64,000 nucleotides of DNA, taken from the NCBI RefSeq assembly GCF_045037415.1, contig NZ_CP173438.1; one strand, 5' to 3'. Position 1 is the stretch's first letter. Every line of letters begins with the position of its first letter. A program made the position numbers. Positions 44,301-50,300 of the stretch are shown piece after piece. This DNA comes from Escherichia coli. Lineage in GTDB: Bacteria; Pseudomonadota; Gammaproteobacteria; Enterobacterales; Enterobacteriaceae.

Positions 44301-47300
44301 CTCCAATCTATATTTTGAAACTCGAGAGTACACAACCAATTGGCATCAGAACGTGGGTAGGCAAGAAGTTGCCACTCCATAGTTCTGGAGTTGGTAAGGC
44401 TTTATGTGCGTGGTTACCTCAAGACGTCATTGACACATTGTTGCCTGAGGAAACGTTGCCACGATTTACGCAAACAACTATCACTCGTAAATCTGATCTA
44501 ATACAGGAATTTGCACGTATTCGTGAACGTGGATGGGCTTTTGATAACGCAGAGGATTCACCGGGAATTTATTGTATTGCTGCTCCGGTATTTAATCAGA
44601 CTCGTGAAGTAATTGCAGCTATCAGCATTAGTGGCGTGGAAATTCAGATACCTAAAGAAAAAATTGAATATTATTCAACTTTGGTTCTTGATGCGTGTCA
44701 AGAACTATCGGAAAAATTAAAATATATCTGAATTGAATATGTAAGATGTATAGCATCATAATATATGGTATTATATTTTTATGAAAATTAATAGTTTTAT
44801 CTGGCATTTATCAGAGTACGTATATAACAAAGAGAGTGTTTTTCTTTTTAAGCGATGATTTTATTTTATCCTGAACAGTTACTTTCACCTAAGAATATTT
44901 TTATATATTAAGTTGATGTTACCTGCTAACGTCAATATTTTATTGATGGTAGCTAACTTAGTAATTATATAAAAAACTTTTACAATATCCGAGAGTATGT
45001 ATGCATAATGTATGCGCCCCCCTATCAGGCTGTCTCTTATACACAAATCCCCACCCGGGGATTTGTGATGTCTGTCAGTCTGCTTTAGGGGGGACTCTTT
45101 CCATTCGGTAGTTTCCTTCCTCCCCGGCAGCGATTTTTTGAACTTTTTCTTCACCCGTTGATCTTCTCTTATATTTCATTTTCTTCGGGTCTGTTATGGT
45201 ACTTTCTGATTGTTATTCATGGGATAACGAGCAGTTTGGACATGCCCGTCTCGGTGATCCGCGTCGTACACGACGCCTTGTGTCACTGGCCTCTTCTCTC
45301 GCTCAGCATGCAGGTCTTTCTATTGTGAAATCATCCCACTCCACTGCTCAGGTTGAAAGTGCGTACCGCCTGATACGTAACCCGTCTGTGTCCCCGGAAG
45401 CCATTGCCTAAGCCGGATTTACCGCCACTGCAAGGGCATGTGAGGCTCATCCGCTGCTCCTCGCACTGGAAGACACCACCACTAATCGTAAGCGTACAGC
45501 GAGGGCCGTATTGACGGGGATGTGTTATTCAGCTGGCAGTGCTATACGCCACGGAAGCAGTTCGCTGACCCGGTTGACCGGCCAGTCTGCTATGACGCCA
45601 AGCACATGGCGAAGGTAGCTTTCTGGATCCACGTCATTCAGTTTGCACGTCCCGATCAGGCTGTACAGTAGCGCTCCCCGCTCACCACCATGGTCAGAGC
45701 CGAAGAACAGGAAGTTTTTACGACCCAGACTGACCGTCAACGCCACAATCTTTGACTGTTTGACATTGTCATGCCCGCAGGCCAGCGAATCTAAAGACAT
45801 CAGACTGCTTGCATCAGCCAGTTGCGTATCTGGCTATGTCCCTTAATTGGTAAGGGTTCGAGGAACTCAACATTAACGCATTTTTCCGCCCATCACCGGC
45901 AGTGTATATGAACGATTGCACTCTTACGATGGTTGATTTATTTGGTTGCGTAGGGGCTAGCTAGTCTGGTACCGGAGGCTGGATCTGAAGTACTGACCCC
46001 AAGAATAACGCCGGGCAGACTCATATTCTGACCCATTGTCAGCCCGCGTGTTTACTGCTCTAGCTCATTTCCTGTTGTCAGGCGTTCAATTCCCAACTGC
46101 AGGTTATGGCCCGGTGCACAAACACCTGACGGCAGGTATCACTTACCCAAAGAAGATAAAGCCCTCAAGAGGCAGTAACTCTGCCAACCTCTCCTCCGGC
46201 CACTCCGGGCAGACGCGTTAGGACGTCCGTCAGCCAAGCATGTGGCTCCAGACTGCTGTTTCCAGAAGGCTCATTATCTGTGCCGCTCGGTTCCCGGCCA
46301 TCAGTGAACCAGCGAACAACCAGGCCTTTCGTCCCATAACGACCGGACGGATAGCACGCTCGCAGATATTGTTGTGTGTGCCTTGAAATGCACAATCTTT
46401 CCGTCGGTGAAAGTCCGCCCCGACTAACTCTCGCTCCAACTGGAAGGACAGGAAGCGGTCCAGGAGGTAACAAAAGGGCTGAATCTCTCCCTGAAACGAC
46501 TTCTTCAGGAAGTCAATGGGTTATGCGGGCCGTAACGTGAGTGAACACTGAGCAGCCATCGAAATGCCGTCGATGGTGCCGATACGCCACAATAACGGGG
46601 AAGGCCGACGATGACCGGGAAGAGAGTGAGAAAGGCATCGGTCATACCCACCGGGGTAGTGGTGTCAGCATGCATAACAATTGATCGATCGTGCAACAAG
46701 AGAAGTCCATAACGATGCCTGTCCGGGTGACGGGCAACAACGCCTCCCGAGGGGGTGAATCGGTTGTTATGGATGGCAGATGGGGTGTAGTAGTGAAAAT
46801 ACTGAGTAATGTCATAGGAGCGAAGGCCCCCTGTTGCAGTACCAGTGTAACATGCAGGAAGAGCCCGGGGATTGCCATCAGCCTCACAACCCCGCTCGAA
46901 CCGGTTCAGAACCTACAGAAAATACTACAGGAGAAAGCAAAGTGAACCTCCCCGTGTTTCCTGTTTATCATTTTCTGGTCAGTGCCGCGATTCTGGTATT
47001 CGTGGTGATTTTCTGGCGGACACACCATCGCGACCACCGTAACTGGCTGGCTCTACGGCTATTCGTATTATGCTCTGTAAACCGTTGGCCATTGCGGATG
47101 GTTAAAGGAACAATAGGTGCTAATAAATCTCGAGTTTTTAACTCAGCGATATTACGTTCACCAAGCGCTGCAAAAAGATTATCTTCAAGACTTTTTAGCA
47201 CACGATGGGCGTGATCTTCAGACCACTTTTTATTGGTGCCATGCCACTCAATCGCGACTTCTTTAAAGGTTCGTGCTTTACTCTGTTCAACCTTATCATT

Positions 47301-50300
47301 TTTCTTTTTGTCTCCCGGATCGACGCCATTCGCAAGCAGCTTACGCGCCTCGTCACGACGTACTCTGGCATCCGCTAGTGTGATTTCAGGATAAACCCCA
47401 AGTGCCAGCATTTTTTGCTTTCCCTCATAACGGTACTGCAAACGCCAGTACTTAGAACCATTTGGATGGACAAGCAGATGCATACCGCCACCATCAGTCA
47501 GCTTATATTGCTTATCCGTTGGCTTGGCTGCTCTGACTTTGATATCTGTTAATGCCATGCGTATTCCCTCCCTGTTGGTACAAGCATTATCGAACCGGAA
47601 ATACCATCATCTGTACCAACATATGTTGGTAGATGTACGTTGATATCGGTTGACCTTGAGAGAGTTAATATAGCGGGAAAGATAGATAAACACTGGATTT
47701 CAGGCATAAAAAAAGACCTCAGTTGAGGTCTATTTACATACTTTTGGTGCCGAAGGCCGGACTCGAACCGGCACGTATTTCTACGGTTGATTTTGAATCA
47801 ACTGCGTCTACCGATTTCGCCACTTCGGCACTGAAGAGGTATGCGGAAAACGTTGTGGATTATACCTGTCGCACGCCACCATGCAAGCGCCAGCTTGCTC
47901 GCACCTCGCTAAGTGCTGAAATTTTCAGCATTGCATACAGCGATGTGTAACCTTTGTCACACTCCAGGCACCCCGCCCTGCCATGCTCTACACTTCCCAG
48001 ACAACACCAGAGAAGGACCAAAAAATGTCGATGATAAAAAGCTATGCCGCAAAAGAAGCAGGCGGCGAACTGGAAGTTTATGAGTACGATCCCGGTGAAC
48101 TGAAGCCACAAGATGTTGAAGTGCAGGTGGATTACTGCGGGATCTGCCATTCCGATCTGTCGATGATCGATAACGAATGGGGATTTTCACAATATCCGCT
48201 GGTTGCCGGGCATGAGGTGATTGGTCGCGTGGTGGCGCTCGGGAGCGCCGCGCAGGATAAAGGTTTGCAGGTCGGTCAGCGTGTCGGGATTGGCTGGACG
48301 GCGCGTAGCTGCGGGCATTGCGATGCCTGTATTAGCGGTAATCAGATCAACTGTGAGCAAGGTGCGGTGCCGACGATTATGAATCGCGGTGGCTTTGCCG
48401 AGAAGTTGCGTGCGGACTGGCAATGGGTGATTCCACTGCCAGAAAATATTGATATCGAGTCCGCCGGGCCGCTGTTGTGCGGTGGTATCACGGTCTTCAA
48501 ACCACTGTTAATGCACCATATCACTGCCACCAGCCGCGTTGGGGTAATTGGTATTGGCGGGCTGGGGCATATCGCTATAAAACTTCTGCACGCAATGGGA
48601 TGCGAGGTGACAGCCTTTAGTTCGAATCCGGCGAAAGAGCAGGAAGTACTGGCGATGGGTGCCGATAAAGTGGTGAATAGCCGCGATCCGCAGGCACTGA
48701 AAGCACTGGCGGGGCAGTTTGATCTCATTATCAACACCGTCAACGTCAGCCTCGACTGGCAGCCTTATTTTGAAGCGCTGACGTACGGCGGTAATTTCCA
48801 TACGGTCGGTGCGGTTCTCACGCCGCTGTCTGTTCCGGCCTTTACGTTAATTGCGGGCGACCGCAGCGTCTCTGGTTCTGCTACCGGCACGCCTTATGAG
48901 TTGCGTAAGCTGATGCGCTTTGCCGCCCGCAGCAAGGTTGCGCCGACTACCGAATTGTTCCCGATGTCGAAAATTAACGACGCCATTCAGCATGTACGCG
49001 ATGGTAAAGCGCGCTACCGAGTGATCCTGAAAGCCGACTTCTGATCCCTTTGCCGGGTGCCTGTCGCCCGGCACTTAAATCTCTTTGGAAGGCGTCTCGC
49101 AATCTGCTGAATTTAGCGGTGAAGAGTGCGCAGCCGTTGCCTATACTCCAGGCAGGAAACTGGAGGAAATCTCATGAGCGAACCCCTGTTAATTGCCCGC
49201 ACGCCGGACACAGAACTATTTTTACTGCCGGGAATGGCTAACCGTCACGGGCTGATTACTGGCGCAACGGGGACGGGTAAAACTGTCACGCTGCAAAAAC
49301 TGGCGGAGTCTCTATCGGAAATCGGTGTTCCGGTGTTTATGGCCGATGTGAAAGGCGATCTGACCGGCATCGCGCAGGCAGGAACGGCGTCGGAAAAACT
49401 GCTCGCAAGGCTTAAAAATATCGGCGTCAATGACTGGCAACCGCATGCCAATCCGGTGGTGGTGTGGGATATCTTTGGCGAGAAAGGCCATCCGGTGCGG
49501 GCGACGGTTTCGGATCTGGGGCCGCTGTTGTTGGCGCGGCTGTTGAATCTCAACGATGTGCAGTCTGGCGTGCTGGATATCATCTTCCGCATTGCTGACG
49601 ATCAGGGGCTGTTACTGCTCGACTTTAAAGATTTGCGGGCGATTACCCAGTACATCGGCGATAACGCCAAATCTTTCCAGAATCAGTACGGAAATATCAG
49701 TAGCGCATCGGTTGGTGCCATCCAGCGCGGGCTGTTGTCGCTGGAACAGCAAGGCGCAGCACACTTCTTTGGTGAGCCGATGCTGGATATCAAAGACTGG
49801 ATGCGCACCGATGCCAACGGTAAAGGCGTTATCAATATCCTCAGCGCCGAGAAGCTTTATCAGATGCCGAAACTGTATGCCGCCAGCCTGTTGTGGATGC
49901 TCTCGGAGTTGTATGAACAATTGCCGGAAGCGGGCGATCTGGAGAAACCAAAACTGGTGTTTTTCTTCGACGAGGCACATCTGCTGTTTAACGATGCACC
50001 GCAGGTACTGCTGGATAAGATTGAGCAGGTGATAAGGCTTATTCGCTCAAAAGGCGTGGGCGTCTGGTTCGTTTCGCAAAATCCGTCCGATATTCCGGAT
50101 AACGTGCTCGGCCAGCTCGGTAATCGCGTTCAACACGCTTTGCGGACTTTTACGCCCAAAGATCAGAAAGCGGTAAAAGCTGCGGCGCAAACCATGCGGG
50201 TCAATCCGGCATTTGATACCGAAAAGGCGATTCAGGAACTGGGCACCGGCGAGGCGTTGATCTCTTTTCTGGATGCGAAAGGAAGCCCTTCTGTGGTGGA

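Follow-up and report, generated by a model that had tools for sequence, protein, structure and literature searches.

The leuX end of the GI-leuX island in an Escherichia coli ST131 clade C chromosome: a truncated P4-family integrase, a degenerate distal repeat and an idn-less ahr–yjgR slot

We analysed a 64,000-nt stretch of an Escherichia coli chromosome (contig NZ_CP173438.1 of assembly GCF_045037415.1; hereafter the window) in which a genomic island meets the core chromosome at leuX, the tRNA-Leu(CAA) gene. The window belongs to clade C of the pandemic sequence type 131 (ST131) and is 100% identical to the JJ1887, EC958-type and IPCEC48 chromosomes over the stretches compared. The explanation that best accounts for the whole region, and that we hold with high confidence, is that the window contains the attL end of GI-leuX, that an internal deletion has truncated the integrase gene of this island, that the island very probably cannot excise itself, and that the core genes beyond leuX, ahr and yjgR, enclose an old version of a variable slot without the idn (L-idonate) genes.

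The integrase sequence lies in an open reading frame (ORF) of 196 codons (46968–47558, minus strand) that begins with ATG and starts 186 bp from the leuX 3′ end, a layout of integrase next to the tRNA gene that is seen in dozens of Enterobacteriaceae loci. The ORF encodes the arm-type DNA-binding domain of P4-family integrases (Pfam Arm-DNA-bind_3, PF13356; residues 3–87, E 1.7e-29). The central domain Phage_int_M (PF22022, 96 positions) is incomplete, with homology stopping at residue 149 after about half of the domain; full-length relatives cover PF22022 positions 1–96. No Pfam match to the catalytic domain Phage_integrase (PF00589), which holds the active-site tyrosine, was found in the 196-codon ORF. 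In K-12 and E. albertii, the full-length relatives carry the complete set of three domains, with PF00589 at approximately residues 207–385. The NCBIfam integrase model scored 104 bits against a cut-off of 434 and matched only over profile positions 8–166 of 413. The translation tracks K-12 IntB through ‘…TRDLLAPI’ (residue 149) and diverges afterwards, and the BLAST breakpoint against K-12 falls at 47112. The remnant of the P4-family (IntB-type) integrase is confined to codons 1–149 (47112–47558, minus strand), and the remainder of the ORF (46968–47111, minus strand) is a read-through tail of 47 non-integrase codons and a stop, antisense to the interior of K-12 yjgX. The initial annotation had described 196 codons of a P4-type integrase; the length of the ORF and its N-terminal domains stand, but only the first 149 codons are integrase. 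Since a search for the catalytic domain came back negative, the ORF does not qualify as a functional P4-family integrase, and the NCBI annotation pipeline PGAP calls the identical JJ1887 sequence an integrase pseudogene lacking its C-terminus. The K-12 intB gene carries an in-frame stop at codon 19 (KQY*LTDGG vs KQYKLTDGG; ~7759–7761 of locus L003, the K-12 BW25113 comparison locus, and 47502–47504 of the window) and is therefore annotated from a downstream Met, without the start of the arm-binding domain.

We also considered whether the ORF is kept as a functional gene, for example one encoding an arm-type DNA-binding protein that acts at the island ends or regulates nearby genes. Its open frame with an ATG start and its complete Arm-DNA-bind_3 domain agree with such a role, but the tail consists of antisense pseudogene sequence, PGAP regards the gene as a pseudogene and a consensus scan of 46800–49300 gave no sigma-70-like promoter. 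The sampled copies are 100% identical, so that selection on the ORF is not assessable. We therefore rate this function as highly improbable.

Comparison with K-12 located the break in the integrase gene precisely. Window positions 45724–47112 correspond to L003 2481–3869 (97.2% identity) and positions 47112–49044 to L003 7369–9300 (98.0%), and the equivalent of L003 3870–7368 is missing between 47111 and 47112, with a single A common to both ends. The missing segment comprises the rest of yjgX, the insertion sequence (IS) IS2 in K-12, and the integrase codons from 150 to the end. What abuts the integrase gene on the island side is a remnant of a yjgX-type phosphoethanolamine-transferase pseudogene (46957–47115, plus strand), homologous to the K-12 pseudogene at L003 3714–4897; PGAP annotates both pseudogene fragments in JJ1887. 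The integrase gene was cut short by a simple internal deletion, which has a 1-nt junction and fused what was left of the gene to the yjgX-type remnant. A 501-bp probe across the junction was covered in 450 of the 5,426 complete genomes to which all our genome counts refer; the sampled rows with full coverage were 100% identical, and every other genome split exactly at 47111/47112. This pattern is consistent with a single event that has been inherited clonally.

The proposal in the initial annotation that the catalytic domain had been replaced by IS66-type debris did not survive this comparison. PGAP places an IS66 transposase fragment at 45525–45734 and an IS66 C-terminal fragment at 46143–46373 (both minus strand), with Pfam DDE_Tnp_IS66_C matches among this debris, and these sit 0.7–1.6 kb deeper in the island than the junction. 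The nearer fragment (46143–46373) occupies the same relative position in K-12, whose integrase retains the catalytic domain, and we therefore rejected IS66 as the cause of the truncation. A fragment of an IS4/Tn5 element (45196–45483, plus strand; PGAP) lies further into the island.

The island was then delimited by its flanking repeats. The leuX gene (47745–47829, minus strand) is the sole tRNA gene that ARAGORN found in the window and is identical to K-12 leuX, with its 3′ end pointing toward the island. The attL-side repeat, a 23-nt stretch at this 3′ end (47745–47767, minus strand), has no second copy within the window, whose positions 1–47744 are GI-leuX interior according to the JJ1887 annotation and collinearity (fecIRABCDE, sugar-metabolism modules and IS elements). 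In JJ1887, a CCA-anchored, gapless suffix search through the 96 kb that separate leuX from fimE was also empty; the reading that there is no distal repeat was rejected when a later k-mer search succeeded. This search located GAGTCCGGCCTTCG, oriented like leuX and 55.9 kb from it. The repeat reads TTTGAGTCCGGCCTTCG-CACCA, compared with TTCGAGTCCGGCCTTCGGCACCA in leuX, and so carries one mismatch and a 1-nt deletion while keeping 14 contiguous matching nucleotides. It is followed by a hairpin, GTCGCTCAAGGGCGAC, and a T7 run, which together are the displaced native leuX terminator; a near-identical hairpin (one base different) lies directly 3′ of leuX in the integrase-free E. coli O145 strain RM12275-C1, and related native hairpins stand after leuX at loci without an integrase in several further genera. 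In the window, the position directly 3′ of leuX is taken by an island-borne terminator hairpin, AGACCTCAACTGAGGTCT, followed by a T-run (47714–47731, minus strand; terminator scan). The same island-borne terminator follows leuX wherever an IntB-type integrase has integrated in other species, and island-free leuX loci carry the other, native hairpin. In IPCEC48, which is identical to window positions 1–1,449, the distal repeat lies 9,587 bp before window position 1, and the island between the repeats measures ~57.3 kb in this strain. The distal copy of the leuX 3′ end that the initial annotation had proposed looking for is thus present, in degenerate form, 9.6 kb before the window starts. The genes just inside it are cah, an antirestriction gene, a JAB gene, yeeU/cbtA and genes for DUF5983 and DUF957, a set that forms the usual right end of CP4-type islands. 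The insertion at the leuX 3′ end with core genes on the other side, the imperfect flanking direct repeats (the distal one outside the window) and the existence of strains in which the site is island-free (in O145 RM12275-C1, leuX is followed by the native terminator and no integrase) show that, apart from a working integrase, the island fits the structural definition of a tRNA-associated island.

Outside the repeats, two features of JJ1887 were observed (locus L004, outside the window). From L004 7930 onward, beyond the repeat and its terminator, the sequence does not match the native leuX flank of strains 536 and O145 and contains an IS3/HTH (helix-turn-helix) fragment, an Eco31I-family restriction-modification system and McrBC. 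A second mosaic region, of older date, therefore lies between fimB and the repeat. At L004 45909–48401, fimB is split by an ISL3-like element, ISEc53, together with a ClbS/DfsB-family gene; the split by ISEc53 is the known fimB insertion of ST131 H30.

The loss of the catalytic domain bears directly on whether the island can leave the chromosome. In strain 536, pathogenicity island (PAI) II is reported to depend for its excision on a P4-like integrase of its own, which is highly site-specific, and on the flanking repeats; the same paper gives the decay of mobility genes after integration as the textbook route to stable islands (PMC3202238). The JJ1887 annotation lists no further integrase in the interval from leuX to fimE. 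We further searched for the catalytic half elsewhere with a chimeric query, in which 1,000 bp of ST131 ahr were joined to the reverse-complemented catalytic half of K-12 IntB so that ST131 chromosomes rank first. In 58 of the 60 top-ranked ST131 chromosomes, including those of JJ1887, JJ1886 and EC958, the catalytic half had no megablast-level match (~85% identity or better) on the chromosome, the only replicon covered; across all genomes, it lies beside leuX–ahr in 2,180. The cognate integrase on which self-excision would depend is thus a truncated gene without a close paralogue in these 58 chromosomes. Because the catalytic domain is gone, a close chromosomal paralogue is lacking and the distal repeat is damaged, the island very probably cannot leave the chromosome through site-specific recombination of its own, which agrees with the expectation in the initial annotation that it is fixed.

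Several points weigh against this overall explanation. The inability to excise is deduced from sequence alone, two of the 60 listed ST131 chromosomes show a second match place for the chimeric query, and attL is intact and the distal repeat has only two changes, so that a related integrase provided in trans could in principle still use them. In addition, the published size of GI-leuX in EC958 is 79.1 kb (PMC3203889, PMC4134206, PMC4850260), compared with 56–57 kb between the repeats; the authors evidently drew the island boundary elsewhere.

The second and third of these points are also what would favour an island that is still mobilisable, with a P4-family integrase from another island, a plasmid or a phage acting in trans on a perfect attL and on a distal repeat that retains its 14-nt match. 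Other tRNA-associated islands do occur in ST131 (PMC3203889). However, the mismatch and the 1-nt deletion fall within the 18-bp repeat used by PAI II of 536, the leuX integrase of that strain is reported to be highly selective for its cognate site (PMC3202238) and 58 of the 60 ST131 chromosomes lack the catalytic half of IntB at the above identity. The leuX-proximal 6 kb persist in at least 434 complete genomes, and the 450 genomes covered by the junction probe keep the junction. Mobilisation in trans is accordingly a doubtful prospect to which we assign a low probability, somewhat above that of a functional ORF.

The present arrangement probably arose when a P4/CP4-type element integrated into the leuX 3′ end by site-specific recombination, bringing along both a copy of the tRNA 3′ end and a terminator of its own. 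The native 3′ end of leuX and its terminator were thereby displaced by ~57 kb and survive as the degenerate repeat. An illegitimate deletion of ~2.2 kb, or 3.5 kb when measured on K-12 with its IS2, then removed the 3′ two-thirds of the integrase gene and the adjoining part of the yjgX pseudogene, leaving the 149-codon arm-binding fragment and 47 unrelated codons. Such an island could still be moved with its flanks by homologous recombination. According to Ben Zakour 2016 (PMC4850260), GI-leuX was acquired by the clade C0 ancestor in ~1980, and recombination may have brought in fimH30 at the same time; such a history suits an island that travels with its flanking sequence and not via its integrase.

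On the core side, leuX is followed by ahr, yjgR, lptG, lptF and pepA. The first core gene, ahr (yjgB; 48025–49044, plus strand; PGAP), encodes an NADPH-dependent aldehyde reductase and scored 553 bits with the NCBIfam equivalog NF047908 (cut-off 470) in an alignment from residue 15; its longest ORF begins at 47983 and the likely true start is 48025. The HerA-like ATPase gene yjgR (49174–50676, plus strand; PGAP; Pfam HerA_C, 839 bits) is 96% identical to K-12 yjgR at the DNA level and starts 130 bp after the end of ahr. The initial annotation had placed the whole junction at 46968–49044; ahr does end at 49044, but yjgR falls outside this interval. The gap between the two genes consists of a 90-bp spacer (49045–49134, plus strand) with a terminator-like hairpin of ahr at 49055–49076 and a 39-bp shared region upstream of yjgR. 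K-12 has a 5,087-bp idnK–idnDOTR cluster in place of the 90-bp spacer, and none of idnK, idnD, idnO, idnT and idnR lies between ahr and yjgR in the window. Annotation and the K-12 comparison thus bear out that the idn genes present in K-12 are missing here. A second chimeric query gave no copy of idnD–idnO elsewhere on the chromosome in any of the 44 ST131 chromosomes listed (44/44).

A 681-bp probe across the ahr–yjgR gap was contiguous in 3,212 of 5,426 genomes at 92.5–100% identity, including O157:H7-type genomes and many lineages, and the K-12 idn cluster was matched in 2,055 genomes (1,973 of these at 99% identity or more). The direct adjacency of ahr and yjgR is therefore the common version of an old alternative-cassette site and not a strain-specific lesion, and the idn-positive arrangement of K-12 is the minority state. 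In published work, idnK was absent from JJ1886 and S250 and present in SE15 (PMC5369007), and the idn genes were listed as accessory in a pangenome table (PMC8545132); together with these counts, this upholds the description in the initial annotation of a presence/absence polymorphism at a known variable point. PMC5369007 also reported all gluconate-pathway genes except idnK in JJ1886, yet NC_022648.1 has no megablast match to K-12 idnD–idnO, and these BLAST hits in JJ1886 were probably paralogues.

To place the two versions, we compared the contents of the slot in ahr-centred loci from 80 species, which showed that it varies across the Enterobacteriaceae. In E. albertii and six Citrobacter species, ahr lies directly beside yjgR, and a dozen or so loci of Citrobacter contain idnK together with idnDOTR in the same gene order, as far as each contig extends. 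A gene of ~548 codons fills the slot in many loci of Enterobacter, Kluyvera and related genera. The 90-bp spacer could be aligned among ST131, E. albertii and the idn-less Citrobacter species with conservation of the hairpin position and of the motif TCGCAATCT...AATTTAGCGGTGAAGAGTGC, and the sequence that precedes yjgR in Enterobacter and Kluyvera is similar to the right half of this spacer. The idnR–yjgR spacer of the idn-positive genomes could likewise be aligned between K-12 and Citrobacter, and the two versions rejoin at the same right breakpoint, TTGCCTATACTCC. When the ahr–yjgR spacer was compared with idn-positive strains, as the initial annotation had proposed, no similarity was detected; chance matches of 8–14 nt were all that was found, and a derivation of the spacer from idn-positive sequence by deletion was rejected. 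Because counterparts of the spacer exist in E. albertii and Citrobacter, the arrangement without idn in ST131 is an old, intact configuration and not a deletion scar.

These data also decide against a recent deletion of idn in the ST131 lineage that was linked to the neighbouring island. Such a deletion is suggested by the presence of idnK–idnDOTR at this spot in K-12 and by the distribution within ST131, where SE15 of clade A is idnK-positive and clades B and C are negative (PMC5369007). However, the direct junction is shared by the 3,212 genomes above, the spacer is not derivable by deletion from sequence to which it has no similarity, and its counterparts extend to E. albertii and the six idn-less Citrobacter species, with a right half like that of Enterobacter and Kluyvera. 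We consider a recent deletion the least tenable of the alternatives and extremely unlikely.

The idn-less arrangement of the slot looks ancestral. The flanking genes cluster by genus and not by slot version, and the divergence of the Idn proteins between Escherichia and Citrobacter is about that of the flanking core proteins. Two old versions that both persist in Escherichia and Citrobacter, as a polymorphism older than the split of these genera, are conceivable, although we lean towards doubting it.

Other observations were made on the slot. In nearly all idn-positive E. coli, including phylogroup B2, the idn cluster (L003 9301–14387) is at least 99% identical to that of K-12, and strain-to-strain differences in the final 300 nt of ahr reach 7–9% (flanks of window 48745–49425), so that the cassette edge is where divergence is highest. 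In Enterobacter, Kluyvera, Kosakonia and other genera, the slot ORF (for example, L031 10113–11759 and L053 10064–11737) encodes 546–558 aa on the opposite strand and begins MSRFFFNDRKQLV. Klebsiella and Trabulsiella loci have ABC-transporter-like genes in the slot. Escherichia sp. MOD1-EC7003 (L049 6653–11253) has a variant idn-positive locus with ~285 bp of unrelated sequence between idnR and lptG, in which no IdnT or YjgR match passed the filter (at least half of the protein aligned).

We compared the region with known systems that share its sites. GI-leuX of ST131 (EC958, JJ1886) is the same island, with the fec locus, mosaic IS content and leuX location in common (Totsika 2011, PMC3203889; Forde 2014, PMC4134206). 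Neither the truncation point of the integrase nor the degenerate distal repeat was found in the portions of the GI-leuX descriptions available to us (PMC3203889, PMC4134206, PMC4850260). Relative to GI-leuX of JJ1887, the window has an additional ISEc45 copy. PAI II of 536 occupies the same leuX site with a P4-like integrase and 18-bp direct repeats, and its right end is alike, with yeeU/cbtA, DUF5983, DUF957 and a regulator followed by the displaced leuX 3′ end and the native terminator; its distal repeat is better preserved. The integrase of PAI II works, and that island excises and reintegrates (PMC3202238), whereas the GI-leuX integrase has no catalytic domain. Their cargo also differs, with hly and cnf-type genes in PAI II of 536 and fec and sugar-metabolism modules in GI-leuX. 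The KpLE2 phage-like element of K-12, which also includes fec, shares the leuX-proximal order of intB, yjgX and the IS66 C-terminal fragment, and its backbone is 97–98% identical to the window (100% over 251 bp of the integrase gene beside the junction). It differs in keeping the catalytic half, in the stop at codon 19, in having IS2 between intB and yjgX, and in lacking the 47111/47112 deletion. The GntII/L-idonate cluster of K-12 (idnK–idnDOTR) occupies the same ahr–yjgR slot that holds the 90-bp spacer here.

The identity of the window was further examined with a 6-kb query (44700–50700), which was 100% identical to many ST131 chromosomes, including those of JJ1887, JJ2434 and an O25b:H4 strain, and of which 80% or more was covered in only 434 of the 5,426 genomes. 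The ahr test stretch was matched at 100% by EC958, JJ1886 and JJ1887. Apart from 1.43 kb at 32759–34190, the window and JJ1887 are collinear. The 1.43-kb segment is an IS110-family element, ISEc45, with a 377-aa transposase ORF (32818–33951), inserted at the end of an IS66-like ISEc23 and absent from JJ1887; an identification with the blaCMY-23 insertion reported in GI-leuX of EC958 was rejected. Its exact context was seen only in strains IPCEC48 and IPCEC42, and a 1,951-bp probe of the ISEc45/ISEc23 junction was covered to at least 80% in 574 genomes, on chromosomes and plasmids, which suggests that ISEc45 targets the end of ISEc23. Beside the decayed island end lies a low-GC sugar-acid module (38700–44731; 38–47% GC in 1-kb windows over 40001–45000) encoding a major facilitator superfamily (MFS) transporter, a PdxA-family dehydrogenase, a UxaA-family hydrolase, a protein of the DHDPS family and a divergent IclR-family regulator. 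It is not the yjhH/yjhI pair, which JJ1887 carries further along the island.

The GI-leuX end with its idn-less neighbour is real but ordinary and largely published, and its significance goes little beyond bookkeeping. The analysis provides exact coordinates for the decayed attL end of this clinically important island, namely the truncation at codon 149, the junction at 47111/47112 and the degenerate repeat ~57 kb away. It corrects the use of K-12 as the reference state for the ahr–yjgR slot and records the absence of the idnD–idnO segment from the JJ1886-type chromosomes listed. It also supports the published view that homologous recombination of a large stretch, and not integrase-mediated insertion, gave clade C both GI-leuX and the nearby fimH30 region. 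If the two slot versions do predate the split between Escherichia and Citrobacter, niche-dependent selection would have maintained them, or recombination through the flanks would have re-seeded them repeatedly.

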